A stretch of 17,144 nucleotides of DNA from Candidatus Heimdallarchaeota archaeon (lineage in GTDB: Archaea > Asgardarchaeota > Heimdallarchaeia > JABLTI01). Both the position numbers and the translations under genes were made by a program. Every line of letters starts with the position of its first letter. Position 1 is the stretch's first letter. Where the stretch lies: assembly GCA_030614005.1 (NCBI GenBank), contig JAUWKS010000068.1, positions 1 to 17,144 of the forward strand. The letters are read 5' to 3'. Below the pieces are notes generated by a model. The model did not search any database, had not been told where the DNA came from, and saw only the letters and a list, made by a program, of their open reading frames with translations. Shown in pieces: positions 208-16,442 of the stretch.

Positions 208-456
208 ACCCAAACACCATTTCTTTTTCTAGTAGATATACTTACTTTTTCTGTTATTTATTCTTTTTGTTCGCAACAGTAAATAATGATTTTTTTTCTT
301 TATAAATTCCAATAATTATTAACTTTTTCTAAGATGGTTATAGTTATGTATTTTTTTATTGAACTTTCACTTATAAATTTAAAAGCATTTTCCCCATTTT
401 CCGCTAAATTAAATATCCTACTTTTAGCATTTTTTAAAGAATATTTGGCAAGTAAT

Positions 457-579
457 TAGTGAGAAGTTATGCCAAATACATTCAATCTTAGTAAAACGGA
501 ATTTGCAGCCTATCTTGATTGTCCGTTAAAATTCTATTTACAAAAAGAGCAGAATTTTCAGCTCAAAGAAGGGTGTTGA
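457..579 (+). pseudogene. Truncated 5' fragment (copy 1) of the Cas4-like nuclease gene at 8902
   Basis: ATG at 469 gives MPNTFNLSKTEFAAYLDCPLKFYLQKEQNFQLKEGC* (TGA 577-579). This matches MSNDFNLSKTEFTAYLDCPLKFYLQKEQHLTTKEG at 28/35 aa. It has the same upstream ta-n-TGAGA-n4-ATG motif. Confidence 0.9.
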
Positions 580-733
580 GGTTAATACAGGTAGTAGAGC
601 AGTGGAGCTTAAATTGGTTATATAGAAACTAGTTTATAGGTAAAATGACTCTTTTTCGAAAGAAGTTTAAAATAGAATAAGTTATTATCATTAGAGACTT
701 TAGATTAGAAGCACAACAAAAATGTGAAGACAA

Positions 734-1897
734 ATGGCTAAAAAGTCAATTCTAGTTGAGGTGAATCCCGCTGTTCTTATTTGGTTACGCGAGAGTTCTG
801 GTTGGGAAATTAATGATGTTGCTAAACGGTTACAAACTAGTGAACGGATTATATTAGCAATAGAGCAGGGGAAAAAACAACCTACTCTTCGTCAATTAAA
901 AACGCTTGCAGTCGCTTATCACCGTCCTCTTGCTATTTTTCTTCTTTCAGAACCGAAAGAGGAGAAACCTTTGCCTAAAGATTATCGTATGATAACCGGC
1001 AAACGGGATAGGTTTGATAAAAAGACTCTTCTAGCTATTCGTAAAGCTCGTCACTTACAGACTGTCAGTCAAGAATTAGCTAAGAATACTGATAGAGATA
1101 CTTCTCTACAAGTGGAATTCACCACTTTGCGAGCAAACCCCCAAGAAGTTGCTAGCTCTTATCGTGAACTTTTTCAATTAACTTTAGAGAAACAGCAGAA
1201 TTTTACTAGTTCCTACAAGTTCTTTTACTATTTGCGAGATGTTCTCGAAGAGCTAAATATTCTCGTATTTCAATTCTCCATGCCAATTGATGATGCTCGA
1301 GGTTTTACTCTTGCGGATGAATTGCCTGTAGCTATTGTTGTTAATACTAAAGATATTATTCAGGCTCGTCTTTTTTCCCTCATGCATGAATTTGCTCACA
1401 TTCTTTTAGGTGAAACTGTCATTGATTTACCAAATCTATCTAACTTTTCCGATCATAAGATTGAAACCTGGTGCAACGAGTTTGCTTCTGCTTTTCTCTT
1501 GCCCTCTTCCTTTGCTAATAACCTATTTGATCTCAACCTTGTAAATTTATTAGATACAGAGGTACTCAAAAGTCTCTCTCGAAAAACCAATCTCAGCAAA
1601 GGAATGTTGCTCTATAATATGTATAAGATGGGATTCATTACTCTTGAGAGTTATAAAGGAGTTCTCAATCGACATCAAAAATTAGCAGAAACAAAAGAAA
1701 AGGAAAAGAAAACGAAAGAGAAATCAGGTGGAGGCATTCCTCAAGATAGAAAATGCCTTTCTGAACTTGGCGTGAAATTTGTTTCCCTTGTTGCTGATAA
1801 TTTTGAGTCCAAAAAAATTACTTATAGCGATGCTCTCAGCTACCTTTCAATCAAAGCGAAGCATTTTGATAAAGTTCTTGCGAAGGCAGAGAAATGA
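734..1897 (+). CDS. XRE-family HTH fused to ImmA/IrrE (COG2856-like) Zn metallopeptidase
   Basis: N-terminal HTH (VNPAVLIWLRESSGWEINDVAKRL...IEQGKKQPTLRQL). HExxH motif in RLFSLMHEFAHILL, followed by ETWCNEFASAFLLP. Confidence 0.9.
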   Translation: MAKKSILVEVNPAVLIWLRESSGWEINDVAKRLQTSERIILAIEQGKKQPTLRQLKTLAVAYHRPLAIFLLSEPKEEKPLPKDYRMITGKRDRFDKKTLLAIRKARHLQTVSQELAKNTDRDTSLQVEFTTLRANPQEVASSYRELFQLTLEKQQNFTSSYKFFYYLRDVLEELNILVFQFSMPIDDARGFTLADELPVAIVVNTKDIIQARLFSLMHEFAHILLGETVIDLPNLSNFSDHKIETWCNEFASAFLLPSSFANNLFDLNLVNLLDTEVLKSLSRKTNLSKGMLLYNMYKMGFITLESYKGVLNRHQKLAETKEKEKKTKEKSGGGIPQDRKCLSELGVKFVSLVADNFESKKITYSDALSYLSIKAKHFDKVLAKAEK

Positions 1898-2385
1898 CTG
1901 CGAATCATTATATTGTTGATACTTGTTCCCTTGTGGACTTGAATAGGTATAATCCCATTGACGTTTTTCCCTCAGTTTGGAAAAGATTAAGCATATTGGT
2001 TCGCAACAATTTACTTCATTCTCCTATTGAGGTATTAAAGGAACTTCAAAAACAAGATGATCAAATTGTTGCTTGGGCTAAACAACATAAAAAGATGTTT
2101 CTTCCCGAAAGTGCACCGCAAATTCTTATTGTTATTGAAATCATGCGTGATTTCCCTGCTTTAGTTGATGCCAGTAAACAATATAGTGCTGATCCTTGGG
2201 TCATTGCTTTGGCTTATGAGCTTACTACTGGTAATCAAAAAACTATGTTTGAAGACAAAATAATGATTGTCACAGAAGAAACCTTGCGTGGCAATAAAGT
2301 CAAAATTCCTCTTGTTAGTCAACATTATCAGCTAGAATGTATTAATTTAGTAGAAATGTTTCGCAGAGAGGGGTGGAAATTTTAG
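1894..2385 (+). CDS. DUF4411-family PIN-like domain protein (putative toxin)
   Basis: YIVDTCSLVDL, EVLKEL, ADPWVIALA, IVTEE and KIPLVSQHYQLECI motifs. ATGA overlap with the XRE-ImmA gene, its usual partner. Confidence 0.85.
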   Translation: MTANHYIVDTCSLVDLNRYNPIDVFPSVWKRLSILVRNNLLHSPIEVLKELQKQDDQIVAWAKQHKKMFLPESAPQILIVIEIMRDFPALVDASKQYSADPWVIALAYELTTGNQKTMFEDKIMIVTEETLRGNKVKIPLVSQHYQLECINLVEMFRREGWKF

Positions 2386-2539
2386 TTATTCGTTTATTAT
2401 TATCATTAATTTGCCAAATATTGTGAAATTTATTTAATTTAGATAGATTAAATTTAAGCTAATTATAGCAAACATCAAAATAACAATTATGTGCAAATAT
2501 ATGAGTCAAAATCTACAGCTCGATTAGGATTGTTGAAAC

Positions 2540-2878
2540 ATGGTGAATTCCCAAGAAATTTATCGCGAAATCGATTCGTGTAATATTTCATTCCGAAATA
2601 AGAGAGAAATCATTTTTCATCTCAGCAAATATCCAGAGCTAATTCCTATTATAACCCAAGCACCTCGAAAAATTCGGAATTATTTTCCAAAATCCCCGAT
2701 AGTACTGGAAATGCGTAAAGACCCCGAAAAAGGTTCCTCTATCTTAATGCTTTACATTCAAACATCTCTATCGGCAGAGGAAGCTTTTAATAATCTTGAT
2801 ATGATAGATGAGATTTGGTGGTTCAATACTTCCAAGAAAACAAGTTGTAATTTGTGTCTACACGTAGAGTTCCAGTAG
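2540..2878 (+). CDS. Small HEPN-associated protein (putative antitoxin)
   Basis: Overlaps the HEPN gene. The pattern YPELIPII..A..KIRNYFP..LE...DPE...LYIQT..EEA...LD.IDE.WW...LCLHVEF resembles small proteins I recall upstream of HEPN genes. No canonical MNT GS/DxD motif. Confidence 0.6.
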   Translation: MVNSQEIYREIDSCNISFRNKREIIFHLSKYPELIPIITQAPRKIRNYFPKSPIVLEMRKDPEKGSSILMLYIQTSLSAEEAFNNLDMIDEIWWFNTSKKTSCNLCLHVEFQ

Positions 2879-3252
2879 AATTTACAAGGCATCAATATTT
2901 CTATCTAGCTAAAGAACTCATCAATCAATCGTGTGATGAGACTGATTATAAAGAAGCTTTACTTCGAAGTGCTATAAGTAGAGCCTATTATGCTACTCAC
3001 TATTTAGCTAGAAATTATCTTATAAAAGACAAAGGACTCACACCTCCTAAGAAAAAGATCGATATGCATAAATGGGTGATTGATGAAATAAGGAAGGATT
3101 CCACAATTGGAACTGTTCATGTGCAATTAAGTAGATTGCGTGATGATAGAAACAGAGCTGATTATGAAGATACTATTAGAGGAGTAAGGAGTATAGCTGA
3201 AGGAGCTATAAGAGGGGCGCAAAGTGCGATTGATACGTTAGATTCTACTTGA
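2854..3252 (+). CDS. HEPN domain protein (UPF0332/COG1895-like)
   Basis: RSAISRAYYA and LSRLRDDRNRADYED motifs. GTG start with a 25-bp overlap with the upstream ORF. Confidence 0.85.
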   Translation: MSTRRVPVEFTRHQYFYLAKELINQSCDETDYKEALLRSAISRAYYATHYLARNYLIKDKGLTPPKKKIDMHKWVIDEIRKDSTIGTVHVQLSRLRDDRNRADYEDTIRGVRSIAEGAIRGAQSAIDTLDST

Positions 3253-3546
3253 CTTTTTGTTTCGATGTTTACTTTTATTCATTCTAAAGTTGTCTGGTCT
3301 TTTTAAAACTCATCCACTTTGGTGACTCGTCAAGTTGACTCTTCGAAAAATCAATCTAGGCTCTTAAAGGTAACTTTTTTAGTGTTTAGACGGCTAAAAG
3401 TTGTCCGTTGCATAAGCTAAAGCTCAATTATGAGTATTGAAACTATTTGTATCGACGATTTTACCGTCTTTGGTTTTTATTGAAATAAAAAATAAAGCTC
3501 AATCAAGGGAGTTAGAATTGAAAATTACTTCAAAGGTAAACAAAAC

Positions 3547-4060
3547 CTATTCTTCTTCAGAGGACAATTCCAGTTGTATTGTTTCGTAAAGCATCGCAGT
3601 CATTCGGAAATTAGTTTTATTAATTGCTGATAAGATAGTGAACGTAGCACTCTTAGAAAGTTTTTTTTTGCTTTTTAAAGAAACTAAAAGACCAAGCAAT
3701 CCTGTTAAATGAAAACCTTCTGCTCGTGCAACGGAACGAGCTATTAAGTCATCAAAGATTACAACATCTTCCGCTTTCTTAGTGGAAGCTAAAATAGATA
3801 TCTCTCCATCATGTAATCCAAGAGAGCGATAGAGTTGCAGTGAAGCATCTGGTAGAACCAGATCAGGTAGAATTTGTATTTTCTCTTCGGATACGAGTGC
3901 TTCAACTGCTTTTTTAATTGGTGAAGGACGGAACGTTACTTCTTTTAGAACCGTTGTTGTTATGGTGAAATTTGGAACTAACTTACAAAACAGTTGCAGA
4001 TAACCAAATCTCAGCCAACAGGATAATACTTGAAGCATCAAAAACAAATCGAAGGGTCAT
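3547..4060 (-). pseudogene. DUF3368-like PIN domain protein with a +1 frameshift near its 5' end
   Basis: ATG at 4060, 2 bp after the antitoxin stop, reads MTLRFVFDASSIILLAEI and then stops. Removing one T from the TTT at 4006-4008 joins it to GYLQLFCKL...LHDGEISIL...VIFDDLIARSVARAEG..LTGLLGLL, giving 170 aa. Confidence 0.8.
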
Positions 4061-4062
4061 TA

Positions 4063-4371
4063 TTACAGTATTCCTTCAATTGAATGTATATCTCTTTGAA
4101 GTTCGCTAGTACCATAGCGAAAATAGGTATACCCCCGTTCTTCTGCGAGATTGAGAAATTCCACTATAGATAGCTTCGATCCCGCCGCGGCATAAGTGAG
4201 GGAAATTTCGTTATTAATTAAGCGATTAAAGTAATAATCAAAAAGTAGCCCTTTTTTACCACGTTTGAGTATTTTTCTTACAAGCTCAGACTTGCTTATC
4301 CCGAATTTCTTTGCTAATGCATCGAGTTCTTTGGATTCTTCATCATTCACCCGTACTTGAACTATGGTCAT
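4063..4371 (-). CDS. Ribbon-helix-helix / UPF0175-like antitoxin
   Basis: Likely start at 4371 (MTIVQVRVNDEESKELDALAKKFGISKSELVRKIL is RHH-like), followed by ISLTYAAAGSKLSIVEFLNLAEERG (UPF0175-like). The longer 4533 start overlaps cas6 and looks non-coding. Confidence 0.75.
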   Translation of the reverse strand: MTIVQVRVNDEESKELDALAKKFGISKSELVRKILKRGKKGLLFDYYFNRLINNEISLTYAAAGSKLSIVEFLNLAEERGYTYFRYGTSELQRDIHSIEGIL

Positions 4372-4380
4372 ACTATTCAC

Positions 4381-4409
4381 AGTACAAATAATAGCTATTG
4401 TAGTACAAA
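4381..4409. promoter_or_regulatory. Candidate autoregulatory operator of the RHH-PIN pair
   Basis: AGTACAAA direct repeats at 4381-4388 and 4402-4409 (21-bp period) flank the palindrome AATAGCTATT (4390-4399), 10 bp upstream of the antitoxin start. Confidence 0.35.
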
Positions 4410-4465
4410 AATATTTCTCATTAAAAAAACAAGTGTATTTCGAGACTAGTAAAAATCGATTGAAG

Positions 4466-5287
4466 TCACATTCTATTTCTTTCGAGAGAATATCTAACAC
4501 AACCGAGTCCTGCAGTTCGATTTTCTCCAACATTACTAAATTTAGCGAATTGCGCTAAAGCATGAAGCCTTAGCTTATATTTCTCTTTTCCAGTAAGCTT
4601 GTAGCGTACCCAGCCCTTGACCCCTATCTTGAGTTTGTCCTTAGCAACATAAGCTTTTCTCGTTCGAAGTTCGAAAGCATTTACTGAAACATGTTTGTCA
4701 ATCCAAGTGAGTAATTCCGAAGTATTGATCCGGTATTTATTATCTGCAAAAGCATTCCAGAGAACTGCAAGATCCATGAAAAGATATCTCGGGTCTGGAA
4801 ATCGTAGTGGAGAATCTTTGGTGGCAATATCAAAATATGTCGGTGTTAAAAACTCTAAAGTTAGAAATTCTTGCTCTCCTTTCGCATGCTGTAGAAATTC
4901 TTTAGCAGTTTTCTTGTGCATTTCAATACCAACCACTACAAAATCAATTGTTCCAATTTGTAGTATCATTTCCTCTACTTTCGAAATTAGCTTCTCCATT
5001 TGTTCCGCAAGCTCATGAGTAAGGATGCCTAAACGAAAGGTATATGCTACCTCTTCTTTAATTATTATCTCTCCTTTATGTGTCCAATTCATGCTGCTCT
5101 TATAGGTATGTAGTGTCGATAAACTATATGGTGAATATTTATTTTTTTTCTGGAACTGTTTGTATAGTTTATTATTATTATCCAGTTTCTTTATAACCTT
5201 CAATAACGCTTCATTTATCAGTTGTCCCGTGAAAGAGGGCAATATACCATCTGTTTTAGATTTGAGAACAAAACGAAAATTATGCAT
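4466..5287 (-). CDS. cas6: Stand-alone CRISPR-associated endoribonuclease Cas6-like protein
   Basis: PYSLS, LEFLTPTYF, FPDPRYLF..L..LWNAF and GVKGWVRY motifs, plus a C-terminal Gly-rich loop NVGENRTAGLG. Purine-rich RBS AGGAAAGG upstream. Confidence 0.88.
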   Translation of the reverse strand: MHNFRFVLKSKTDGILPSFTGQLINEALLKVIKKLDNNNKLYKQFQKKNKYSPYSLSTLHTYKSSMNWTHKGEIIIKEEVAYTFRLGILTHELAEQMEKLISKVEEMILQIGTIDFVVVGIEMHKKTAKEFLQHAKGEQEFLTLEFLTPTYFDIATKDSPLRFPDPRYLFMDLAVLWNAFADNKYRINTSELLTWIDKHVSVNAFELRTRKAYVAKDKLKIGVKGWVRYKLTGKEKYKLRLHALAQFAKFSNVGENRTAGLGCVRYSLERNRM

Positions 5288-5607
5288 TGCTTTGTGTTCC
5301 TTTCCTTATTGTTCTATTGTGAACCAAACAAACGAATAAACACTCCTAGATTAATGTTTCTTCTTTTTAGGTTTTAAGGATCAATAATTGCTCAGTATTT
5401 ATAGTATGATTCTATTTCGTTAACCAATATTTAAATTTTCAACAGTCAAAGAAAATAAGCAAGTATTTTTTTTCATAGAAAATTCAATAATTTTACATAG
5501 TGATTCTCCTACAATTCAATACTCTTTCTTCTTTTTAAATACCTCTTAGAAAAGCTATACGAATAGCTAATTGCTCAACTATTCTTTTAAAATTTTTAAC
5601 GTTGTAT

Positions 5608-5708
5608 TAATGAGAGATAATGCCAAATACTTTCAAATCCAGTAAAACAGAATTTATTGCTTAACTTAACTGCTGATAAAGTTCTATCTCCAAAGGGAAC
5701 AGAAATTA
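5608..5708 (+). pseudogene. Decayed 5' fragment (copy 2) of the Cas4-like nuclease gene
   Basis: ATG at 5620 gives MPNTFKSSKTEFIA*LNC, then a 1-nt deletion, then KFYLQREQKL. The ta-n-TGAGA-n4-ATG motif is retained (TGAGA 5611-5615). Confidence 0.8.
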
Positions 5709-5952
5709 GTTATCTAGTTTCAGAAAAAATAGAAAACACATGCTTCTATACAATTAGCTATTGAAATTCAATTAGAAAAAATGTTACCTGAAAATTATAC
5801 TATCAAAAATGTGATCAAATATATCTGCATATCTATGACAATTACTTTGGTGATAATCAGAGTACTTATACAAAGCTTATAAGCTAAGAATTAATGGTTA
5901 TTATAAAAATAAAAATTTTACACTCTATTATCAAATATTTTTTCTTTTTAAC

Positions 5953-7227
5953 CTAGATTGATTGCAACCAAGTTTTTAGATGTTGATTTGAAAGGTTATA
6001 AAGATTTAATCTATAACCTTCAGTTTCTGCTATTTCTTTTGATAATAATTGCTTATTTTCATCCAAATCTAATTCCGAAACTTTGTCTAATTCGGTTTTG
6101 TGTACAATCAGAAAATGTTTCTTAGTATCAGTCATATAGTTTAATTCATCAAAGAATCCTTCAACAAGCTTTCCTTTCGTAAGTTTTGGTAGCTTAGATT
6201 TCTTAAAGCTTTTACAAAACTCACAGTTACATAGTAATTTATCATGTTCCGACAAGAATTCTCGAGCATATGTTTTAGATGCATATGTGTGCAAAAATGG
6301 CAAATAAAATCTTTCTGGACTACCTCCGCCACCTGTTGATGCATCTACATTTCGTTTCTCACTTAGACCAATACCTCGTGAATAGCCTGTTAGCCCTTTT
6401 TTTGTTAGCAATAGAGAAAAATAGTCACCATATAGATTATAGAGTGGTTTTCCATTTGCAGTGAACTTTTCAATTAATTTAGTGAACTGCTTTAGATAGA
6501 GTAGAATTTCTGTTCGTTCATTAAAATCTGAAATCCAAATAATTATTCCTTTAAAATTTCTATAATCCTCAACTAATTTATCAATTTGAATTTCATTTAA
6601 AAGCATCTCCTTTGAAAAACAAATTATGGGATAAATTGGATATTCTTTTTCAATCCTAATCATTTCATTTGCTAGCATAAGGGAAATATTATACCATGGG
6701 TCAGATGTTGATTGAAAATAGAAGTATGGTGTCGTAAAAAATACCAGGCTTAGCTCCTTTACTTCAACTGTTTTTCGATTTAAGATCTCATTATATCTCT
6801 GTAGAGATTTTCTTGTAGTATCATCTTCCCCTTTATTTATTGCTTCGGTAAAATCTTTCTGGAATTTTAACGCATCTCTAGCTACTAAAGATATCAAATT
6901 TTCATCTTTATTCAGGAAATCTTTTGGCAGTAGTTCCCTATATTCTAAAATATTCTGAATCTTTTCATCCATTGATGAATATAGCTTCTGGACTGACTTC
7001 TTTATATGACCAAATTTTTTGATATTGTTTTGATCTCTAGCTATTATGTATGTCATTGGATCAATAAAAAATGGTTTATTCATTTTTAGAATAAATTTTG
7101 GCAATGATTTAATAAAATATGCTGCAAGATGAGCACTTATCGTTATTCCAAAAAAGGTTTCATTAAATTCTTCCAAAATATTCTTTTCATTCATAGGTCC
7201 TATTCTGTAGAAATTATTAGCACTCAA
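5953..7227 (-). CDS. Divergent tRNA-guanine transglycosylase (TGT/DpdA)-like protein with Zn site
   Basis: Alternating hydrophobic strands and helices suggest a TIM barrel (FFIDPMTY, FFTTPYF, IIIWISD, YNLYGDYF, GYSRGIG). The C-terminal CNCEFC-x32-H matches the TGT CxCxxC...H Zn site. TTG start with GGGG RBS. The fold call is inference. Confidence 0.5.
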   Translation of the reverse strand: MSANNFYRIGPMNEKNILEEFNETFFGITISAHLAAYFIKSLPKFILKMNKPFFIDPMTYIIARDQNNIKKFGHIKKSVQKLYSSMDEKIQNILEYRELLPKDFLNKDENLISLVARDALKFQKDFTEAINKGEDDTTRKSLQRYNEILNRKTVEVKELSLVFFTTPYFYFQSTSDPWYNISLMLANEMIRIEKEYPIYPIICFSKEMLLNEIQIDKLVEDYRNFKGIIIWISDFNERTEILLYLKQFTKLIEKFTANGKPLYNLYGDYFSLLLTKKGLTGYSRGIGLSEKRNVDASTGGGGSPERFYLPFLHTYASKTYAREFLSEHDKLLCNCEFCKSFKKSKLPKLTKGKLVEGFFDELNYMTDTKKHFLIVHKTELDKVSELDLDENKQLLSKEIAETEGYRLNLYNLSNQHLKTWLQSI

Positions 7228-7621
7228 TATTTAATCCCCTTTCAATTTGATTCAAAACTTCTCTCTTAACTGATTTATGTATAATTTTAGACTTTTTCGC
7301 TCTTTGTATAATTTCAATACTATTATCTTTCACAGCAATTAACCCTATCCCGTATTCCTTCAAAATATCTAATTGTACCCTGTGAACGAACTTCTCCGAA
7401 AGAGCAATATATGATTCATGAGCACAAAGTCTACATGCTAATGCTTGTTGCAGAGCTTTCTTCCAATTACTTACTTTAACTTCAATTGCGATAAGTTTTT
7501 TCTTTTTATGACCAACCAAGTCAATATATCGTGTGAGAAATTTTATTTCTTCGTAGTAATTATATCCTTCATTCTTCAAGTAATCAACAATAGGTGGGTA
7601 TAATTCACATTCATAGACCAT
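7217..7621 (-). CDS. Small PD-(D/E)XK restriction-endonuclease-like protein
   Basis: E (YECEL), E (YEEI), D (YIDLV), EVK and ALQQA motifs in the order typical of the REase fold. Confidence 0.75.
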   Translation of the reverse strand: MVYECELYPPIVDYLKNEGYNYYEEIKFLTRYIDLVGHKKKKLIAIEVKVSNWKKALQQALACRLCAHESYIALSEKFVHRVQLDILKEYGIGLIAVKDNSIEIIQRAKKSKIIHKSVKREVLNQIERGLNIEC

Positions 7622-8046
7622 TATACAGTATCCCCAAATCTATCAATAAATTCCTCTGGTGTGAGTAATTCTATTTCATCCTTTTTACTCATGAAATCTT
7701 TTGTATTTCTAGTTATTATAATTTCACATTTAGCACTTTTTGCTGAATGAAACTGTATTGCATCTTCAAAGTCTTCGATTTTACATTCAAAAGCTTTAGT
7801 TATTATATCCTTATTAACTGGAATTATTTCAAAATTTTCAATGAGTGTTTCTGTATGTTCCCTTACAATTGGTAAATCGTATCCTCCTCTCTTTTTGATA
7901 TAGTAATATAGTAATGCAACAGTTAAACTTGAGATATATCCTTTAATCAAGCCATTTCTTACCTTAAATAGAATAATTGTACTTTGTTTCCAACGAGAAC
8001 GCTGTGTTGCACAATCACACAAAATATTTGCATCAACAAAAATCAA
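7621..8046 (-). CDS. PIN domain (VapC/PIN_3-like) ribonuclease
   Basis: IFVDANILCD, DFEDAIQFHSA and IITRNTKDF motifs. TTGA overlap upstream and TAATG overlap downstream. Confidence 0.88.
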   Translation of the reverse strand: MIFVDANILCDCATQRSRWKQSTIILFKVRNGLIKGYISSLTVALLYYYIKKRGGYDLPIVREHTETLIENFEIIPVNKDIITKAFECKIEDFEDAIQFHSAKSAKCEIIITRNTKDFMSKKDEIELLTPEEFIDRFGDTV

Positions 8047-8711
8047 TCTGTATACCTCTCAACCAATAATTCCCCTAATAATTTCTTTTCTTCACTAAGT
8101 GATATTGTTGGCAGTATCCCGATAACTCGAAAGAATTCAGGATCTACATCTAAATGTGGATAAGCTTCTTTGAATTCCTCTAAAGGACTTTTCAATATCT
8201 CATGTTTAATGATGGATTTAGAGGTGAACTTTCTATAATTTTTATAGACATATTCCAATAGATCTTTACCAGACAAATTGGAATATTTTCTCATAATTGA
8301 GTCAATTTTATCTCGATTTGTTTGAGATAATTTTTGATATATATAAGGTGCTACTTTTTTCCCGTCAGTTGATAATGAATAAACCCGTATTTCATTCGTT
8401 TCTATTTCATCTTCATCTGCTATTATTTTTCTTTCCAGATCTTGTAAACAATAGTCATTTAAACTCTTTGTTTTCTTAGTTTCTATCTGAACTAATCTTT
8501 CATCTTGTAACAGCTCTGAATAATCTAGTACTTTTGCTGACCATGGTCCAAAATTATAAGCTTCAAAATTAAACTCTGTCAGTAGCTTTTCAAATCCTCC
8601 TTCAAATAACATGAGAAAGATTAATTTTACTAATCTAGTTGCTCCCCAAACGGTTTTCTCTTTACTTCTATAAATTATTAATAATAGTAAATCCAAACCT
8701 GAAACTGTCAT
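8043..8711 (-). CDS. Panacea/DUF4065 (SocA-like) antitoxin-domain protein with C-terminal extension
   Basis: GATRLVKLIFL, FEAYNFGPWS and DLLEYVYKNY motifs, plus an extra ~45-aa C-terminal tail. Confidence 0.7.
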   Translation of the reverse strand: MTVSGLDLLLLIIYRSKEKTVWGATRLVKLIFLMLFEGGFEKLLTEFNFEAYNFGPWSAKVLDYSELLQDERLVQIETKKTKSLNDYCLQDLERKIIADEDEIETNEIRVYSLSTDGKKVAPYIYQKLSQTNRDKIDSIMRKYSNLSGKDLLEYVYKNYRKFTSKSIIKHEILKSPLEEFKEAYPHLDVDPEFFRVIGILPTISLSEEKKLLGELLVERYTD

Positions 8712-8755
8712 ATTTCACCTGTCCTATCAGTCATTTTCTTTTTTCATTATAAAAA
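8712..8755 (-). promoter_or_regulatory. TATA box and archaeal Shine-Dalgarno of the four-gene operon
   Basis: Minus strand reads TTTTATAA at ~8754-8747, and AGGTGA lies 4 nt before the ATG at 8711. Confidence 0.5.
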
Positions 8756-8901
8756 TCTGTTTTAAAAACGATAATTAAACTTCTTTTTATTGTCAAATTA
8801 CTACTTTTTAGTAATGGTATTTTATAAGTTATATTAGTATCTTTCTGAGATGCCAGTTTGTGATATAAATAGAATTTTTCATAGTATTTTACTGAGAAAT
8901 C

Positions 8902-9582
8902 ATGTCCAATGACTTCAATCTCAGTAAAACGGAATTTACAGCATACTTAGATTGTCCGCTAAAATTCTATCTCCAAAAGGAGCAACATTTGACAACTAAG
9001 GAAGGACCCAGAGAGAATCAAGATACTAGTAACCATCCCGCTCATTTAGCTAGAGGTATAAAATGGCATGATCGTCTTACTACCTTTTATCAGAAAAAGG
9101 CAAAAGGTTTGCTAGCAGGAACAATCTCGGAGCGAGAGGCATTGAACCATCCGTATTATCAGCTTTTCTGGCAACAGGAACTCCATCGACGAGCATTCGA
9201 TCCTGATAATTGGTATCCGTTAGCATTCGAATATTATTGCTCTTCTCCGATTCTTCGAGGAAAGATCGATCGCATCGATCCTCTTGGTCCCTCTGACTGT
9301 TGTCTTGTTGAATACAAAGGTTCTTGGGAAAATCGAGGTTATCTCTATGAGGAATTGCTGTTCTATGCTCTTCTTGTTTCTGAGAGTGAGTCATTTCAAC
9401 AGGAGATTGGTCGCCCTGTTTCTCAAGTTGCTTGTTATTTTTACAACACTGGTGAATGGTATACTCGAGAGGTTTCTCCAGCTGATCTGTCTTCTTTTCG
9501 AGAGTATCTTGTTGCTCTTCGTTCCGAGATGGTTTCTGGTAACTGGGCTCGTAAAATCAATTGTTCTCTCTCTTCTCAATGA
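8902..9582 (+). CDS. Cas4/AddB-like PD-(D/E)XK nuclease; probable true end 9646 via frameshift
   Basis: N-terminal YLDCP, RGIKWH, LRGKIDRID, VEYK and ELLFYA motifs. Ends NCSLSSQ*, while another frame continues LLNDCSYAVVC...RD* to 9646 and supplies the missing C-terminal cysteines. Confidence 0.8.
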   Translation: MSNDFNLSKTEFTAYLDCPLKFYLQKEQHLTTKEGPRENQDTSNHPAHLARGIKWHDRLTTFYQKKAKGLLAGTISEREALNHPYYQLFWQQELHRRAFDPDNWYPLAFEYYCSSPILRGKIDRIDPLGPSDCCLVEYKGSWENRGYLYEELLFYALLVSESESFQQEIGRPVSQVACYFYNTGEWYTREVSPADLSSFREYLVALRSEMVSGNWARKINCSLSSQ

Positions 9583-9650
9583 TTGTTCTTATGCTGTTGT
9601 TTGTACCAAAATACCTGACAGATTCATTAGATCCTCTCGAGACTGATTGT

Positions 9651-10577
9651 CTAGTTTCTTCCTATTTTTCTTCTCTTTCGAATAACCAAGACGGTTGGGA
9701 TAATAACTCCTACTGCTATAGTTGGTACTAATATTGCAACCAAGATGCGCGCGGTATTTTCAATTTTAAACCAGGGGAGATTATAGCCTACCAGTTCAAT
9801 TTGGTACTCCATAGAAAGGTCGACATTGCCACTTGGTATTTCTCCTTTTGTCCTCCCCTTCATATGCATCCCTAACAGTGTCCCTGTTGATTTTTCAAAA
9901 GTAATTTGAAATCTGTTCAAAAAGGAGGAATTCGCTGGCAATCCATTATAGGGATATCCGAGGAGTTCATCAAACTGACCTGTTAATTTACCTGTATTCC
10001 ATGTTTCAAAATAAATAATATCACTTTTATCAGTAAAGATAAAATCACCTTCAAAATCATGCCCAAGGGAGGTATATTCCGCAATTTCATTTAGTGAAGC
10101 ATTCCCTAACATTTCAAGATAATCCCAAGAATCAACAATTGGGTCAATATATGGATAAAGAAAGAAATAAAAACCATTTTCAAAATTCTCTCTCTCCCAT
10201 AAATCTATCATTGAAGTAGTAAAGTGAGTTGCAAGATAAGTGAAGAGTTGGATTCTATTTTTATAGAAATCAACTGTATAGCCAAAATTTCTAGTATTAT
10301 TATTAATTGAATATTGCCCATTCATTCCTCCACCAAGATAATTAATATCAACATTCACTTTCGTCATTCGTGGGTAATTTTCAGAATTCAATCGGAAACC
10401 ACTTGTAGAAACACTGTTCTCACCAACAGTTGCGGAAATATTTGCTTGGACAACTTGATAGTGAAGGACATCTCCAACAGCAAGCTGTGTAGAAAGTGAG
10501 AATATTGTTGAACAAGAAAAAAGCGATAATACAAGTAATTGTATAATAACAAAATAGATACTTTTCTTCAAATCCAC
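9651..10577 (-). CDS. Secreted, C-terminally anchored protein (choice-of-anchor S-like)
   Basis: Signal-peptide-like N-terminus, VGDVLHYQVV and FEKSTGTLLG motifs, and a C-terminal TM followed by RKRRK. GTG start with GAGGAG RBS. Family name is from recall. Confidence 0.6.
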   Translation of the reverse strand: MDLKKSIYFVIIQLLVLSLFSCSTIFSLSTQLAVGDVLHYQVVQANISATVGENSVSTSGFRLNSENYPRMTKVNVDINYLGGGMNGQYSINNNTRNFGYTVDFYKNRIQLFTYLATHFTTSMIDLWERENFENGFYFFLYPYIDPIVDSWDYLEMLGNASLNEIAEYTSLGHDFEGDFIFTDKSDIIYFETWNTGKLTGQFDELLGYPYNGLPANSSFLNRFQITFEKSTGTLLGMHMKGRTKGEIPSGNVDLSMEYQIELVGYNLPWFKIENTARILVAILVPTIAVGVIIPTVLVIRKRRKIGRN

Positions 10578-10652
10578 AATCTCCTCTGATAATCATTTCT
10601 TATGAGAAGTAATTATAAGGGTATATTTAAAGTAATAGACTGAAAACTTGAA

Positions 10653-11756
10653 CTATTTCTTGATTTCAGCTGATAAAGGAACTATGCCTTCAATAGGAAG
10701 TTTCTTCTGACAAGTTGGGCATTTCCCTCTGATTTTCACCCATTCTTGTATATGAGACAAGTGGCTTTTCGTTTCACATAAACTACACTTTCCAGCTTCT
10801 TCTCCAAAGGAGATTGGTAATTTGCAGACATTACATATCAAAATTTCTTTCTTACATCCTGAACAGCTTATATCTTGTTTGTTTATTGGATTACCACAAT
10901 AATAACAAGTAGAATATCTATTCGGTAAATCCAGAAATTTATCATCAGTTTTTTTAATAAAAACATTTTCTAATTCTAAAAATTCACCTGTAATTTTCCC
11001 CTCGTTTAATAGCAGTTGAATTAAAGAAATCGTTTCATTTTCGGTAATTTTCAATAATTGCGTAAAGCGGGTTATTACTACTGGAATATCTGTGCGAAAC
11101 TCAGCTATTAATTGTATAATTTCCTTTTTGGTTTGTTCGATATCTTTAGGAACTCCTGTATCAATTGAGGTTTTACTTTTAATTTCTAATTTTGTGCAGT
11201 TTTTAAGAGTAGTAACATCAAGCTCTTTTATTTGATTGCCATTAAGGTTAAGCTCTTGTAGCTTAGTGTATGTTTTCAGTGGGGAAAGGTCGATCGAAAT
11301 AAGCTGATTAAAAGAAAGATCGAGCTTTTGTAGTTTTGAACATGTTTTCAGCGGGGATAGATTTATCGAAGTAAGCAGATTATTACGAAGATTAACCCAT
11401 TGCAGCTCCACGCATGTTTTTAGTGGAGATAGATTGATCATAGTAAGCTGATTTTCACTAAGACCGAGTAATTGTAGCTTTGTACACCGTTCCAATGAGG
11501 ACAAGTCAATAGAAACAAGCTGATTAGTATCAAGAGTGAGCACTTGTAGTTCTGTACATCCTTTCAGTGAGATAATATCAATTGAAACAAGCTGATTGTT
11601 ATGAAGCCAGAGCTTTTGCAGTTTTGTACATTCTATAAGTGGTGATAAGTCAATTGAAGCAAGCTGATGATTTTCAAGATCAAGCTCTTGCATATTTCTT
11701 TTTATTTTTCTGCTAAACTTCTCACCATTTGCTTTAATCCCTGTTATAACAACCAT
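10653..11756 (-). CDS. Leucine-rich repeat protein with winged-helix-like middle, Zn ribbon and C-terminal RING-like domain
   Basis: ~7 LRRs, then GKITGEF, then CYYC..CSGC, then CNVC-x12-CSLC-x4-H-x2-H-x3-W-x6-CPTC. Confidence 0.85.
   Translation of the reverse strand: MVVITGIKANGEKFSRKIKRNMQELDLENHQLASIDLSPLIECTKLQKLWLHNNQLVSIDIISLKGCTELQVLTLDTNQLVSIDLSSLERCTKLQLLGLSENQLTMINLSPLKTCVELQWVNLRNNLLTSINLSPLKTCSKLQKLDLSFNQLISIDLSPLKTYTKLQELNLNGNQIKELDVTTLKNCTKLEIKSKTSIDTGVPKDIEQTKKEIIQLIAEFRTDIPVVITRFTQLLKITENETISLIQLLLNEGKITGEFLELENVFIKKTDDKFLDLPNRYSTCYYCGNPINKQDISCSGCKKEILICNVCKLPISFGEEAGKCSLCETKSHLSHIQEWVKIRGKCPTCQKKLPIEGIVPLSAEIKK
11187..11696 (-). repeat. ~7 tandem 24-aa (72-bp) leucine-rich repeats
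   Basis: Unit like TKLQKLWLHNNQLVSIDIISLKGC, repeated with high similarity. Confidence 0.9.
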
Positions 11757-11942
11757 AGTCTACCCTTCAGATATTACAATCTTGAATTATCTTTCTACAA
11801 TAAAAAAGTTGTTTGAGAGAATATTTATTCAAATAAAAAAGAGATCAGAGTTAGACGAATGTCATTTTTAATCATAATTCTTTTATTGAAAAAAACCATT
11901 TAATCATACTATAGAAGATTACTCATCAATTAAGAGGGATTA

Positions 11943-14120
11943 GTGATTAGACAGCTGAGACTATTTAACATAAGGAAGAGTTTTTTTTCTAGAATAATCT
12001 TTGTTTTCTTTATTATGAGTTTATTTTGTTTAACAACAATTGGTAATCTAAAATCAATTGCACTTCAAAAACAAACAACTACAGAGTTTAATCTTGAACA
12101 AGAGGACGAGTGTGAAAAGATTGGTCATTTTCAATTTGATCATTTCGTAGATATTATTGTATCGAACAATATTGCATACATTATTTCTTCTGATACTGGA
12201 TTACATATTTTTGATGTTACGAATAAGTTAGCACCCAAGCTCCTTTTCAAGGACAACTATTTTGGGTATTATAGAGATCTAGCAAAAGAAGGTAATTATC
12301 TTTATATTGTTAACACCCCTGCAGATTCTTATAGTTTCTTCTTAACTATTTATAATGTGAGTAATCCTAGTAATCCATTAGTAGTTTCAATTACTCTCTT
12401 ATCTTTATCTAAAAGTGTTCGAGATATTGCAGTCCAAGATGATTATGTTTTTTACACCACCTCTGAAGGTTTCTTTGTGTATAATGTATCTGATCATGTC
12501 CATCCTCTATTAATCAATTCAACTTATTCTGATTCCACGGAAGAGATTTTTCTCAATGGTCAAATTGCGTATATCAGCAGTTATTTTCAACAGAGTATTT
12601 TTGTTTACAATATCTCAACACCAAATAACCCAGAACTTTTGTGTCAGTACGAAGGAAATGATATTGCTACTTCAACCTCTTTCAGACCTCAATATATTAC
12701 AATTTTTGATAGTTACCTATATGTTGTTGACTCATATATTGGTTTAATTATTATTAATTCAACAAATCCTTCAGAATTGACTTATATTCACAACGTTCCG
12801 ATTGATTTACAATTTTCTTATAAAAGTAGCATTCAATTAGTTGACGATTATTTTTATATTAATGACGATACTAATGGTGTTTTCATTTTAGACAAAAACA
12901 ACGGCACTCACCCAACCTATTTTGGGAATTATTCTTGTTATGCTAATTTCATGACTGCTGCTGATTCCTATCTTTTCATAACAAATGGTGTTTTCGCGAT
13001 TCTTGATATACAAAATCCTGGAAATATTCAGTTACTTTCACAGATTGGTATTGAAGGTTTCTACAATGCAATTCAAGATCTTGTTATAGCAGATAATTAC
13101 GCTTTTTGTGCTATTGGTGGTGGATTGTTAGTTCTAGATATTTCAAATCTTTCGAACCCAATAAATGTTTATTATTCGAATGAATATCTTTGGGCAAAAA
13201 CTGTTGAGTTACTGGGTGATTACCTGTTTGTAGGTTCTTCTGAAACCTTAACAGTGTTAGATATTACAGATCCTTCAACACCTGTTGTAGTAGGTTCATT
13301 CGATTCATTTGTTATTGATGGTGTCAAGAATGAGTTTTATAGTATCAATAAAATATTCATTCATGGTACCTATGCTTATTTGACCTATTGGTCAATCAAC
13401 AAAGGTAATGTTTTTCTTATCCTTGATATTAGCCATCCACCTGAACCGATTGGAGTAGCAGCTCATCATTTTGGTAATACCTCTATTACTTTCTTGTTTT
13501 GCAGTGGAAATTATATCTGTGATAACAAGGCCTACGTTGGTTTTGGAGAAACTCTCTACATCTTTGATGTAAAAAATAAAGCGAGTCCAAAAATTATTAG
13601 TACTTATACTTTTGACGATCTTGCTCCAATACACGATATCATTGTTGAATCCGGTTATGCTTTTGTTGGAAGTTATAATGGCTTTGCTATTTTAGATATC
13701 CACAAATCAACAAAAGTTCGTTTAGTTTCAAAGCTTGATGAAAATAGCCATACTATTACCGTTGCTGGACAGTACGCTTGTATTGGACGATATGCATTAC
13801 AGCTCTTCGACATGAGCGATCCGAATAATCCTGATTTTATTACTTCCTATAATGATACGGAAACAGTAAATGGTTTAAACCCGGATCCGAGTTTCGGTAT
13901 GGAAAAGATCATTCTAATTGATAATCATGCCTTCATTGCTTATGGACGCAATGGTTTTGTTATTGTAGAACTACCAGTTACAATAACTGGATCTATTCCA
14001 GCTTTAACTGGGTATTACATCTTACCATTTGGGCTTCTAATTCTTATCCCTATAATTATCATTCGAAAAAATAACAAATCAAAAATGAAAAACGATGAAT
14101 TCTTTAGTGTAAATAACTAA
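11943..14120 (+). CDS. LVIVD-repeat beta-propeller surface protein
   Basis: Repeated YA(Y/F)V...GL.ILDISNPSNP-type units, an N-terminal hydrophobic segment, and a C-terminal TM followed by basic residues. Confidence 0.88.
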   Translation: MIRQLRLFNIRKSFFSRIIFVFFIMSLFCLTTIGNLKSIALQKQTTTEFNLEQEDECEKIGHFQFDHFVDIIVSNNIAYIISSDTGLHIFDVTNKLAPKLLFKDNYFGYYRDLAKEGNYLYIVNTPADSYSFFLTIYNVSNPSNPLVVSITLLSLSKSVRDIAVQDDYVFYTTSEGFFVYNVSDHVHPLLINSTYSDSTEEIFLNGQIAYISSYFQQSIFVYNISTPNNPELLCQYEGNDIATSTSFRPQYITIFDSYLYVVDSYIGLIIINSTNPSELTYIHNVPIDLQFSYKSSIQLVDDYFYINDDTNGVFILDKNNGTHPTYFGNYSCYANFMTAADSYLFITNGVFAILDIQNPGNIQLLSQIGIEGFYNAIQDLVIADNYAFCAIGGGLLVLDISNLSNPINVYYSNEYLWAKTVELLGDYLFVGSSETLTVLDITDPSTPVVVGSFDSFVIDGVKNEFYSINKIFIHGTYAYLTYWSINKGNVFLILDISHPPEPIGVAAHHFGNTSITFLFCSGNYICDNKAYVGFGETLYIFDVKNKASPKIISTYTFDDLAPIHDIIVESGYAFVGSYNGFAILDIHKSTKVRLVSKLDENSHTITVAGQYACIGRYALQLFDMSDPNNPDFITSYNDTETVNGLNPDPSFGMEKIILIDNHAFIAYGRNGFVIVELPVTITGSIPALTGYYILPFGLLILIPIIIIRKNNKSKMKNDEFFSVNN

Positions 14121-14223
14121 TATTCAAGATTTCAGTTTGTTTTTCTTCTGGTAGTTTAGTTAGGCTGTCTTTTATTATCCATCACTCTTGCCTTTTAGAT
14201 TTGTAATGAATGAATTAATCACG

Positions 14224-14757
14224 CTACAGTGAAAGCACTAGCTTAGTAGTTTTCTCCTCGATACAAGCCAGCTCCTCCTGTGTTGGTTTTCCTCGAATGT
14301 CACCAAGGGATCCTTTTGTACTCTCAGCTAATCGTCCATGATATTCAGCAACCACATACCACTCATCCATCACTTTGAAGCCCAAGTGCTCAAAGAATTG
14401 TCCGAGCCATTTTACTGCAGGAATTGCTTCATTTTTACCTGTGTGTGGTCCTGAGTAAGTAGCAAAGATTAGAGCATTTCGTCCTGTAACAGGAGACATA
14501 TTGGGTTTGACATAACCTTTTTTGAAGGCTTCTTTTAACTTAGCATTCACAAATTCACGGATTTGTTTTGCGGGAAGCCATTGGTGAGTTGGTGCTCCAA
14601 GACATACTAAATCATACCCAAACAGGTCCTCATCTAAGGCTTCTATTGATCTTTTCATTGTGACGGAAACTGATGCTTTTTCAAGACCAGATTTGATTGC
14701 TTTGGCTACTTTCTCTGTATTTCCAGTACCTGACCAGTACACTATTAATGCTTTCAA
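14224..14757 (-). CDS. Flavodoxin family protein
   Basis: IVYWSGTGNTEKVAKAI FMN loop and LGAPT motif. TTG start with AGGAG RBS. Confidence 0.9.
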   Translation of the reverse strand: MKALIVYWSGTGNTEKVAKAIKSGLEKASVSVTMKRSIEALDEDLFGYDLVCLGAPTHQWLPAKQIREFVNAKLKEAFKKGYVKPNMSPVTGRNALIFATYSGPHTGKNEAIPAVKWLGQFFEHLGFKVMDEWYVVAEYHGRLAESTKGSLGDIRGKPTQEELACIEEKTTKLVLSL

Positions 14758-14951
14758 AGCTGAAACACTCCTTTTTTTTAGGTAATTTATTCTTGTATTA
14801 CTTCTTCTTACTTAGGATTGATAATAATAATTCAAACAAATCCTCTTTGTGCTGATTGTAGCGTTATTCTAGCTTTTTCAAATATATAGGAAAGTAATCT
14901 CTCTAAACCTTATGATATTTTCGGAGTTGTCTGTACTTCTTTTTCATTTAG

Positions 14952-15656
14952 CTATTTTAAGTAGTACCAAAAATAATTAAATTCTATAATACCCAGAAGC
15001 ATTTGTTTGGGTATTTTAGGATATTTTTTAGACAAGTCTATTTCAAAAGAAAAGAAATCGTTCGGAGATCGCCTCCCCTTTCCATAAGACCAATAACTAT
15101 CTCCTAAATCAGAATATTTTTCTACATTTCTCTTTACAATTGCAATAACTTCGATGTATGCTTTGTATACATAATCAAAAACTTCCCTGATGATTTTTTC
15201 TTGGACATTGGAATGTTTTTTCTTTATTTTCTTTAATGCAATTTCTTTACTATAATCGCTGTAATATATAAGTCGATGAACAATATTACCTACATCTTTG
15301 TAAAACAGGTTTTCAAGGGCATCTATAATCGATTTGATCTCTTTGTTTTCTTCCTCTGTTATTTGTCCTTTCACCATTTGATAAAATAATTCCTTATTAA
15401 AAGTGAATACCTTTGACAAATTGCTCCACAATTCTGCTTTTTTTCCTGAAGAACGGATTTTGAATACTTTTGCTAGATTAACTAATTCTGATTTGTTTAA
15501 AATTTTAATAACTTCTTTGATTTTGAAACTATCGTGTTTAACCAATTGTTCAACTAGCTCTTTATTGGTTCCCGATATGTTTCTCTGATTATATTTCAGC
15601 ATATCCTTCAAACGTTCATTTGCTAGGTATTCAACAAGGAAACTGAAAAAATTCAT
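14952..15656 (-). CDS. Hypothetical protein with two SAP/HeH-like motifs
   Basis: LKDMLKYNQRNISGTNKELVEQL and LVNLAKVFKIRSSGKKAELWSNL both fit the SAP consensus. Confidence 0.55.
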   Translation of the reverse strand: MNFFSFLVEYLANERLKDMLKYNQRNISGTNKELVEQLVKHDSFKIKEVIKILNKSELVNLAKVFKIRSSGKKAELWSNLSKVFTFNKELFYQMVKGQITEEENKEIKSIIDALENLFYKDVGNIVHRLIYYSDYSKEIALKKIKKKHSNVQEKIIREVFDYVYKAYIEVIAIVKRNVEKYSDLGDSYWSYGKGRRSPNDFFSFEIDLSKKYPKIPKQMLLGIIEFNYFWYYLK

Positions 15657-15914
15657 ATTAAATCTTTATTTCTTTTGATTCAATATTAGTTTATCTCTTT
15701 TCATCCAATAATTCATTGCTTCTGATATTCTTCTGTGTGATTTTGACTGGTCGCTGTAATTCTATAATTCACGTGCGGTGTGCTAATTAAGCTCTATTTC
15801 TTGCGCACGTTTTTGTCATCGATTTTAGCATTTTTTTTGCTAAAAGGCTATTTTTTTACTTCAAAGATTGAATAAATAATCTATTTATACTTAATTAGCT
15901 AGAAGTTAATTAAG

Positions 15915-16229
15915 ATGTCAGAACACAAAAGCAGACGCAAAAATATTGGCGGCGGTGGGTTGGGTTTACCAACAATTCTTTTGATAATTTTCATAATATT
16001 AAAATTAACCAAAGTAATTGATTGGAACTGGGGATGGGTCCTGTCTCCTCTTTGGATTAGCGCAAGCTTAGGAGTTTTATTCCTTCTTTTCATTGGCTTT
16101 ATTTTGTTTATTGCTTTGATTGGATTAGTAAGTCAAAGCTCCAGTTTGATTGTTGGAATTAAGCGTTGGTTCGGTAGGATTGATAGCGAAGATACAAACG
16201 TCGAAAACGAAGAAGCCTCTGATCCCTAA
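15915..16229 (+). CDS. Small two-TM membrane protein (LKL..VIDW.W.WVLSPLWI family)
   Basis: GLGLPTILLIIFIILKLTKVIDWNWGWVLSPLWIS matches a motif I recall from small phage-associated TMEM185/Fragile-X-F-like proteins. Confidence 0.65.
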   Translation: MSEHKSRRKNIGGGGLGLPTILLIIFIILKLTKVIDWNWGWVLSPLWISASLGVLFLLFIGFILFIALIGLVSQSSSLIVGIKRWFGRIDSEDTNVENEEASDP

Positions 16230-16442
16230 TTTGTTAAAATACTAGTGATCCGGCTTGACGTTCCTTCTTTTTTTTAATTCCACTGTAAGAGATGATGAAA
16301 CCTCTTAATTCTTTTTTTACTACTTTTTGTCCCTTGACGCAATAGGCATTTTTGAGAAATTGTTTTATTTACCAATAACTTTTGTTATTTCGAATGCTTC
16401 TCGTTGTGGAGTTATTCGGAGAAAGAAATTGGGTGATTATTT

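Follow-up and report, generated by a model that had tools for sequence, protein, structure and literature searches.

Truncated starts of a Cas4-like nuclease gene, possible scars of 5'-end displacement, in the eroded remains of a type III CRISPR-Cas locus from an Asgard archaeon

The start of a Cas4-like nuclease gene occurs three times on contig JAUWKS010000068.1 of a Heimdall-group Asgard archaeon, and these gene-start copies can be read as the scars that homology-anchored recombination left when it displaced one 5' end after another in an eroded type III CRISPR-Cas locus. This is the reading we prefer, while rating its prospects as evenly balanced. The stretch analysed, called the window below, is that whole contig (17,144 bp; G000:C42 in our numbering), which belongs to a 3.6-Mb assembly of 126 contigs with 33.5% GC. 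The data directly support the anatomy of the copies, their CRISPR context, one pair of empty and filled sites in relatives, and separate ancestry of the 5' ends. That defence genes cluster is known, and little is understood, particularly in archaea, of how such clusters grow without the enzymes of mobile elements. In this locus, the conserved beginning of a multi-copy CRISPR nuclease gene seems to be a handle for the addition of foreign upstream DNA, which leaves dated scars behind.

Three copies of the gene start

A repeat search of the window revealed a direct-repeat family with three members (437-512, 5588-5663 and 8870-8945). If the shared stretch that immediately precedes the start codon of the Cas4-like gene is named U, the three copies can be described as follows.

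437-579, forward strand: copy A, about 32 nt of U including the motif given below, the Cas4-like gene up to codon 36, and a stop
5588-5710, forward strand: copy B, about 30 nt of U and codons 1 to ~29 of the Cas4-like gene, decayed
8870-9643, forward strand: copy C, U and the full Cas4-like PD-(D/E)XK gene (8902-9582), with an out-of-frame tail (9578-9643)

That the gene start is present three times had been proposed from the sequence of the window alone, and whole-genome BLAST with the 5' end of C as the query bore this out, returning A at an E value (E) of 1.3e-20 and B at 5e-10. Common to the three copies are U, the first 29-35 codons and the motif TA-N-TGAGA-N4-ATG, whose spacing is identical in all of them, as had been stated. 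The description of the truncated copies was also accurate: A, noted at 469, is an open frame of 36 codons in which 28 of 35 residues are identical to those of C before the stop, and B, noted at 5620, carries an in-frame stop at codon 15 together with a frameshift. A matches C at 80% of positions across 102 nt (456-557 versus 8889-8990). The copies are 71-80% alike throughout, and there is no exact identical core at their junctions. Further fragments had been named as support for the proposal; the same BLAST search of the 3.6-Mb assembly found no fragment-only copy beyond A and B.

A search in six frames with a hidden Markov model (HMM) of the family detected no decayed 3' part after A or B, the matches ending at nt 585 and nt 5714, respectively. 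The two therefore have no 3' part at all and do not look like the remains of full-length paralogs, a possibility raised together with the original prediction. The differences between A and C comprise 10 synonymous and 7 non-synonymous codons; being mostly synonymous, they indicate that A and C diverged as working genes, which fits descent from different working alleles rather than the in-place decay of a duplicate. In a related genome (G010), the orthologous gene has a 5' end that is 88.5% identical to A and 81% identical to C; the three sequences are at roughly equal mutual distance. G010 groups with A and C, separately from the other paralogs of the window's genome; B was not placeable in that comparison. 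The first ~37 codons are the only stretch that is nearly identical in DNA across many alleles and paralogs. Public contigs from four marine-sediment and cold-seep runs, which cannot show rare forms, contained no deletion or circle joint and none linking A, B or C.

Empty and filled sites in relatives

Among approximately 40 loci of the family, a fragment lies upstream of an intact copy in three: the window, G006:C182, and a locus covered by two overlapping metagenome contigs (L098/L092). The G006 fragment runs to codon 85, and a 306-nt duplication, extending from -52 to codon 85, flanks a gene for an LVIVD protein. Its empty counterpart is found in G008:C162, where the upstream 271 nt and the gene are collinear with the G006 flank plus fragment. 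Within the duplicated 306 nt, G008 is 92.8% identical to the G006 fragment and 87.3% identical to the 5' end of the intact G006 gene; identity over the rest of that gene is ~93-95%. The intact gene diverges from G008 by ~14% over its 5' ~350 nt and by ~5% beyond, and the fragment by ~7%. The metagenome locus L090 repeats this result. Because the displaced fragment is closer to G008 than is the 5' end of the intact gene, the old 5' end of G006 was displaced, the more diverged one having come in with the inserted LVIVD gene. Thus, both the idea that incoming DNA brings a replacement 5' end and displaces the old one and the expectation of relatives with an empty site held up. Resident ancestry of the displaced piece and foreign ancestry of the corresponding part of the intact gene are shown for G006 by the comparisons with G008 and L090; for the window, where the tract is short, they are only suggested.

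Relatives bearing fragments next to other cargo had likewise been expected and do exist, with breakpoints that differ from those of the window. Besides G006, one fragment in L098/L092 runs to ~codon 140 and another to codon 30, and G005:C117 contains a lone fragment extending to codon 128. The shorter fragment of L092 (784-1107, equivalent to L098 8745-9068) consists of U and 30 codons fused to the first base of a three-repeat mini-array, where it occupies the position of the leader.

The gene content of the slot upstream of the Cas4-like gene is not fixed, and differs between relatives. There is nothing but a LAGLIDADG gene in C78 and C122; an hsdR tail, a 210-aa gene and a HEPN pair in G010; the LVIVD gene in G006; and two further fragments with other cargo in L098/L092. 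A four-gene operon beginning with a Panacea gene fills the slot in both the window and L092. The entire block of B, this operon and the gene is present in L092, and the Cas4-like proteins of the two loci are only ~50% identical, which implies that the block is either old or moves as a unit. Cassettes in relatives are bounded by CRISPR repeats as often as by gene fragments. A candidate fragment at the left edge of the G010 insertion was rejected, its local alignment being no better than that of shuffled sequence.

Junctions

In the window and its relatives, the breakpoints fall at codons 29, 30, 35, 85, 128 and ~140. Three of them lie within 20 nt (codons 29, 30 and 35), each with a different partner sequence, and at two of these three close junctions the partner is a cut scrap or a CRISPR repeat. 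The inference that cassettes are repeatedly inserted around codon 30-35 finds no support here: the ends are scattered from codon 29 to ~140, and no dedicated machinery came to light.

On its left side B abuts a truncated TnpB element, other copies of which run on at the point where the window switches to U of B; in one public run, the sequence left of 5591 is different and resembles the upstream region of A. On its right side, B is fused at ~codon 29 to the middle of an hsdR remnant, which is longer in G010. Reading of the alignments disclosed a microhomology of ~8 nt at this joint, GA(A/G)C(A/G)GAA fitting both partners. The junctions look illegitimate, since B is joined inside the hsdR tail through microhomology and its left side lies at a truncated TnpB element. 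Copy A ends at codon 35-36 and is followed by 157 nt without a match anywhere. A degenerate CRISPR repeat just after A seemed plausible by eye and was dropped, as neither nhmmer nor alignment against shuffles supported it; with these two methods, no significant repeat match was found flanking A or B.

The window contains no integrase domain, in agreement with the original prediction, and the related loci that were inspected showed none either. Only one tyrosine-recombinase (PF00589) match was obtained in the genome, on another contig (C58), and the recombinase that had been supposed to act in trans is not supported by these data.

The Cas4-like gene and its CRISPR surroundings

The product of the Cas4-like gene matches Pfam PDDEXK_1 over residues 7-216 (E 1.8e-14), and its IDRID and VEYK motifs are readable. 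The PADLOC match to Cas4_II, obtained for the G010 ortholog, is weak (E 0.0018). Among the cysteines, C18 is present; the tail of the orthologs has the pattern C-x6-C-x5-C, whose spacing is not the usual Cas4 one. The gene at 8902 had been regarded as full. It does encode a Cas4-like PD-(D/E)XK nuclease, but its 3' end is frameshifted: compared with the G010 ortholog there is one extra nucleotide near 9577-9580, so that the last ~21 codons, with the CSYAVVC motif and two of the three tail cysteines, are out of frame. An in-frame allele, without one base at 9580, is found on a contig of public run X6, and the frameshift of the window is either a real polymorphism or an assembly error. The family is multi-copy: this genome has 5 copies, and other species of the same genus have as many as 7. 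Further broken members occur in the genus as 3' or internal pieces (G004:C286, G010:C39).

In C78, C122, G008, G004 and G010, the Cas4-like gene converges on genes of 227-255, ~662-703 and ~240 aa. The structure of one long convergent protein (~697 aa) was predicted from a 10-sequence alignment, the C-terminal half of the model being confident. While Pfam and the PDB sequence search returned no match to this protein, all 50 matches listed by Foldseek for the predicted structure were Cas1 or casposase (best E 5.5e-6). The protein is thus predicted to have a Cas1/casposase fold.

Members of the family are found 40-430 nt downstream of CRISPR arrays and on the same strand (L089, L091, L100, L102 and others). 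In the metagenome loci, these arrays have a 37-nt repeat, a period of ~76 nt and spacers of ~39 nt, and the genes between twin arrays encode repeat-associated mysterious proteins (RAMPs), an HD-domain Cas10-like protein and Cas6, which make up a type III effector module. The array upstream, the convergent Cas1-fold gene and the type III genes in relatives place the Cas4-like gene on the adaptation side of the locus, as an adaptation-side nuclease of a type III CRISPR-Cas system. In several metagenome relatives, the diverged Heimdall cassettes combining the Cas1-fold and Cas4-like genes adjoin long arrays and type III effector genes (L089, L091, L100, L102, L095-L097), and this attachment to real arrays bears on the question of whether they are working adaptation modules. 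The neighbourhood typical of Cas4, with cas1 and an array, is present in relatives; the window copy is without it, the relic repeats being 5.4 kb off. Two further generalizations were considered. That every array ends in a gene start was rejected, as no fragment follows the first twin array in L091, L100 and others; that U represents the remains of a terminal repeat and trailer (L089/L091) is not claimed, the likeness spanning only ~20 nt.

Relics and cargo in the window

The remaining features of the window are these.

734-1897 and 1894-2385, forward strand: gene for a helix-turn-helix and M78 peptidase protein (RmrA-like) and the overlapping DUF4411 gene, by Pfam and PADLOC matches
2503-2539, forward strand: degenerate CRISPR repeat, 27/37 matches to the window repeat, nhmmer E 0.004
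2540-3252, forward strand: 112-aa gene without a family match, putative cognate partner, overlapping a HEPN gene (2854-3252, Pfam)
3275-3518, forward strand: relic CRISPR array, with a leader-like sequence (3275-3406), a good 37-nt repeat (3407-3443) and a degenerate repeat (3482-3518)
3547-4047 and 4063-4533, reverse strand: PIN-like gene (PDC-S70) and RHH/UPF0175 antitoxin-like gene
4466-5287, reverse strand: Cas6 endoribonuclease gene, Pfam CRISPR_Cas6 E 1.8e-15, PADLOC Cas6 E 1e-26
5405-5591, forward strand: truncated end of an IS200/IS605-type TnpB element, multi-copy, abutting copy B
5697-5890, forward strand: hsdR remnant, C-terminal end of a type I restriction R subunit, fused to copy B
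5953-8711, reverse strand: four overlapping genes, namely Panacea (8043-8711), PIN (7621-8046), YraN/PD-(D/E)XK-like (7217-7621) and a 424-aa gene (5953-7227)
9651-16300: non-defence genes (choice-of-anchor S, LRR, LVIVD, flavodoxin, SAP)

What the window preserves of a type III CRISPR-Cas locus, in eroded form, is Cas6, the leader, one good and two decayed repeats and the Cas4-like gene. At 3275-3518, the leader is followed by the repeat family of the relatives at a regular period: nhmmer detects the repeat 3407-3443 at E 4e-11 and a degenerate copy 75 nt further on at E 0.007. The leader and first repeat are 78-79% identical to the array starts of G005:C91 and G010:C12, and the same repeat builds long arrays in relatives. 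Elsewhere in the G000 assembly no array with the window repeat was found; arrays are often left unassembled. As regards the repeat at 2503-2539, matches of at least 24/37 are expected by chance ~0.2 times per window; its end coincides precisely with the start codon of the gene that follows, and it is placed like the repeat after DUF4411 in L124. If Cas6 were to cut this repeat (2503-2542), the mRNA of the HEPN partner would begin with an 8-nt handle like that of CRISPR RNA (crRNA), and a regulatory link comparable to the control of toxin genes by crRNA-like RNAs is conceivable.

Everything between the gene starts had been taken for toxin-antitoxin (TA) or defence cargo. Four TA/defence modules do lie there, but so do Cas6, the CRISPR leader and repeats, the TnpB element end and the hsdR tail. 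The cargo is a patchwork of TA and defence modules that matches the TA pairs known to sit among archaeal cas genes in the variable, transposable-element-rich regions of Sulfolobales (PMC4390879).

Several of the modules recur in relatives. The M78/DUF4411 pair lies between CRISPR repeats in G005:C42 (L124, 56-2085), where one repeat is degenerate and the other has a 6-nt internal deletion. Homologous HEPN pairs are found directly upstream of the Cas4-like gene in G010 (L034 10996-11708) and inside an array in G005:C4 (L125, 1-2465), the latter together with a 217-aa gene between two four-repeat arrays. A pair homologous to the PIN-like and RHH genes is present in G005:C35. The operon of Panacea, PIN, YraN-like and 424-aa genes, the last of which encodes a protein without a family match, has been kept in three lineages (window 5953-8711, L092 1761-4534, and G004:C70), and divergently adjoins the Cas4-like gene in two of them, the window and L092. 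A separate observation concerns the M78/DUF4411 boundary, where a piece of ~290 nt (1812-2100) has a several-fold higher contig depth in three public runs and loose ends at either side; a nearly identical piece is therefore present in another, more abundant genome or locus.

The hsdR remnant is 77% identical in nucleotides to L034 9713-9903, and the open reading frame (ORF) of G010 at that place matches Pfam T1RH-like_C (E 1e-11). The TnpB element end occurs in at least 17 copies in G000, at 88-96% identity and many of them at contig ends (C89, C110, C113, C23, C97, C108, C83 and others), and probably causes much of the fragmentation of the assembly; the adjoining 397-aa ORF in C78 is TnpB. 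Copies of the element are usually paired with a divergent LAGLIDADG-type gene.

To the right of copy C no defence gene follows, as had been noted. The sequence ceases to resemble G010 near 9678 and does so again from near 16295; in between, 6.6 kb of surface-protein and other genes stand in the place of the Cas1-fold module, which the window lacks. This side may be regarded as a second variable slot: between the same flanks, G010 (L034 12578-16193) has genes of 245, 696, 77 and 194 aa.

Mechanism and alternative explanations

In the course of events that we propose, DNA of a related lineage would arrive together with the cargo, U and 5' end that belong to it, and would recombine with the resident gene via homology inside it, either in the first ~37 codons or further in. 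The far end would be joined illegitimately, at a microhomology, next to the anchor; the resident 5' end would be pushed upstream and left as a scar, and repeated rounds would stack scars and cargo. Deletions and insertion sequence (IS) activity may later trim the blocks, with preferential survival of toxin-antitoxin modules. We infer that the first ~37 codons act, like CRISPR repeats, as portable homology. The microhomology at the B/hsdR joint and the absence of a recombinase are indirect signs of recombination that is homology-anchored at one end and illegitimate at the other. Of the two mechanisms contemplated in the original prediction, the homology-driven one is thus the one we favour, the pathway itself being putative.

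Several observations weigh against such a course. Half of the six breakpoints fall within 20 nt, with different partners, and random illegitimate joints do not predict clustering. B is more decayed than A, though stacking from right to left would make A the older. The recurrence of the block of B, operon and gene in a distant lineage (L092) means that some of the structure came by descent or by movement of the whole block and did not arise at this site. Cargo lies upstream in G010 too, without a detectable fragment, the one clean pair of filled and empty sites involves a non-defence gene, and the contig ends left of A, hiding its left neighbour. To our knowledge, neither DNA uptake nor the proposed recombination pathway has been documented in Asgard archaea.

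It might be argued that the copies arose by rearrangement in place: in a dying CRISPR locus, segmental duplications that took in the gene's 5' end would have been followed by deletions, IS activity and decay, without any contribution of foreign DNA. The position of B, between the two truncated scraps of an IS end and an hsdR tail, would suit such an origin, as would the breakage of other family members in the genus into 3' or internal pieces. Moreover, B stands at the place expected for the gene relative to the HEPN pair, leader and array, an order shared by G010 (where the leader and array are missing) and probably by G005:C117. We nevertheless consider purely local rearrangement unlikely. 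Tandem duplication would leave a second copy of the sequence beside a junction and was rejected, as there is none at any of them; the divergence of A and C is biased to synonymous sites; and in G006 it is the 5' tract of the intact gene, not the displaced fragment, that is the more diverged. A specific version of displacement would be triggered by a break: an endonuclease of the LAGLIDADG type would cut Cas4-like alleles near codons 29-35 in abortive homing, and repair would copy the donor 5' end with its upstream cargo and end by microhomology joining. In phage T4, free-standing homing endonucleases are known to cut a neighbouring gene. In C78, C122 and G010, the Cas4-like gene is immediately preceded by a LAGLIDADG_3 gene, and many paralog loci have one at a distance of 1-2 kb or less; these genes are multi-copy in the genome and accompany the family. 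The copied tract of the window also stops inside the hsdR tail, which in G010 is located between the LAGLIDADG and Cas4-like genes. A cut of this kind could explain why three breakpoints with unrelated partners cluster at codons 29-35, but a single cut site does not accommodate those at codons 85, 128 and ~140. The window has no LAGLIDADG gene, such genes are paired with TnpB elements and may simply belong to them, and cutting near codons 29-35 is a putative activity; we hold this version to be quite improbable.

A dedicated site-specific system, integron-like or island-like, with a recombinase acting in trans and cassettes entering at codons 30-35, would account for the three junctions within 20 nt, for the U motif shared by all the window copies and for modular cargo that differs between relatives. 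It is very unlikely, because there is no exact core, the ends are scattered, the junction partners are truncated genes, and neither the window nor the related loci examined contain an integrase, the sole PF00589 match of the genome being on C58. The multi-gene blocks, moreover, lie on both strands without attC-like ends (attC folding was not tested), and the pattern is seen in only 3 of ~40 loci. Similarly slight is the probability that genes are collected by the CRISPR locus itself. In that case, the diverged Cas1-fold integrase together with the Cas4-like protein, or else recombination between repeats, would capture gene-sized DNA next to or inside the array and store TA/defence modules like giant spacers, the gene-start fragments and the exact repeat-border junctions being traces or by-products. 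The TA modules between repeats in G005:C4 and G005:C42, the L092 fragment fused to the first base of a repeat and the degenerate repeat of the window that ends exactly at a start codon all point in this direction, and the basis is limited to these modules and these two junctions. Conversely, none of the modules is enclosed by an intact pair of duplicated repeats, the 5' half of one repeat flanking the L125 module is degenerate, A and B have no significant repeat matches at their flanks, spacers in these arrays measure ~39 nt, and the Cas1-fold gene is missing from the window.

Comparison with known systems

Integrons, including the sedentary chromosomal ones with TA cassettes, also consist of a row of small modules separated by a recurring sequence. 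In the window, however, there is no IntI, and no attI or attC was recognised, attC folding being outside the tests made. Whereas integron cassettes have attC ends and are mostly single promoterless ORFs on one strand, the blocks described here comprise 2-7 genes on both strands, are bordered by gene fragments, CRISPR repeats, IS scrap and hsdR scrap, and are separated by gene fragments that are 71-80% alike and have differing end points. Islands built by successive site-specific integration into a gene, with a replacement gene end on the element, are similar in that a new 5' end arrives with the incoming DNA while the previous one stays as a remnant; integrase-built islands are set apart from our case by the integrase, not found here, and by the lack here of an identical core, the six breakpoint codons and the cut-gene partners.

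The TA pairs in the CRISPR regions of Sulfolobales (PMC4390879) are likewise situated among cas genes and arrays, in regions where rearrangements via mobile elements are common. Repeated gene-start fragments do not appear in that review, and in the genomes compared here some modules lie inside the arrays themselves.

The nearest likeness is to displacement arrays. Homology-facilitated illegitimate recombination was proposed for the orphan arrays of type VI secretion system (T6SS) effector-immunity genes (PMC5361080), and displacement also for Rhs C-terminal arrays (PMC3967940). As in those arrays, one intact gene stands at the end and truncated same-strand copies of its conserved part each accompany different cargo, an arrangement found in the window, in G006 and in L098/L092; the newest module is beside the intact gene, there is no integrase, and the arrays vary between relatives. 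In the Rhs and T6SS arrays it is the 3' end that is displaced, and here it is the 5' end with the promoter region, which makes the two mirror images of each other. The cargo here consists of unrelated TA/defence modules instead of cognate immunity genes, and the gene is not a polymorphic toxin. Thus, both a degraded CRISPR-Cas locus with interspersed TA modules and a displacement array are of kinds already known; what is new is that the displaced part is a 5' end, that the gene is a CRISPR adaptation nuclease, and that the host is an Asgard archaeon.

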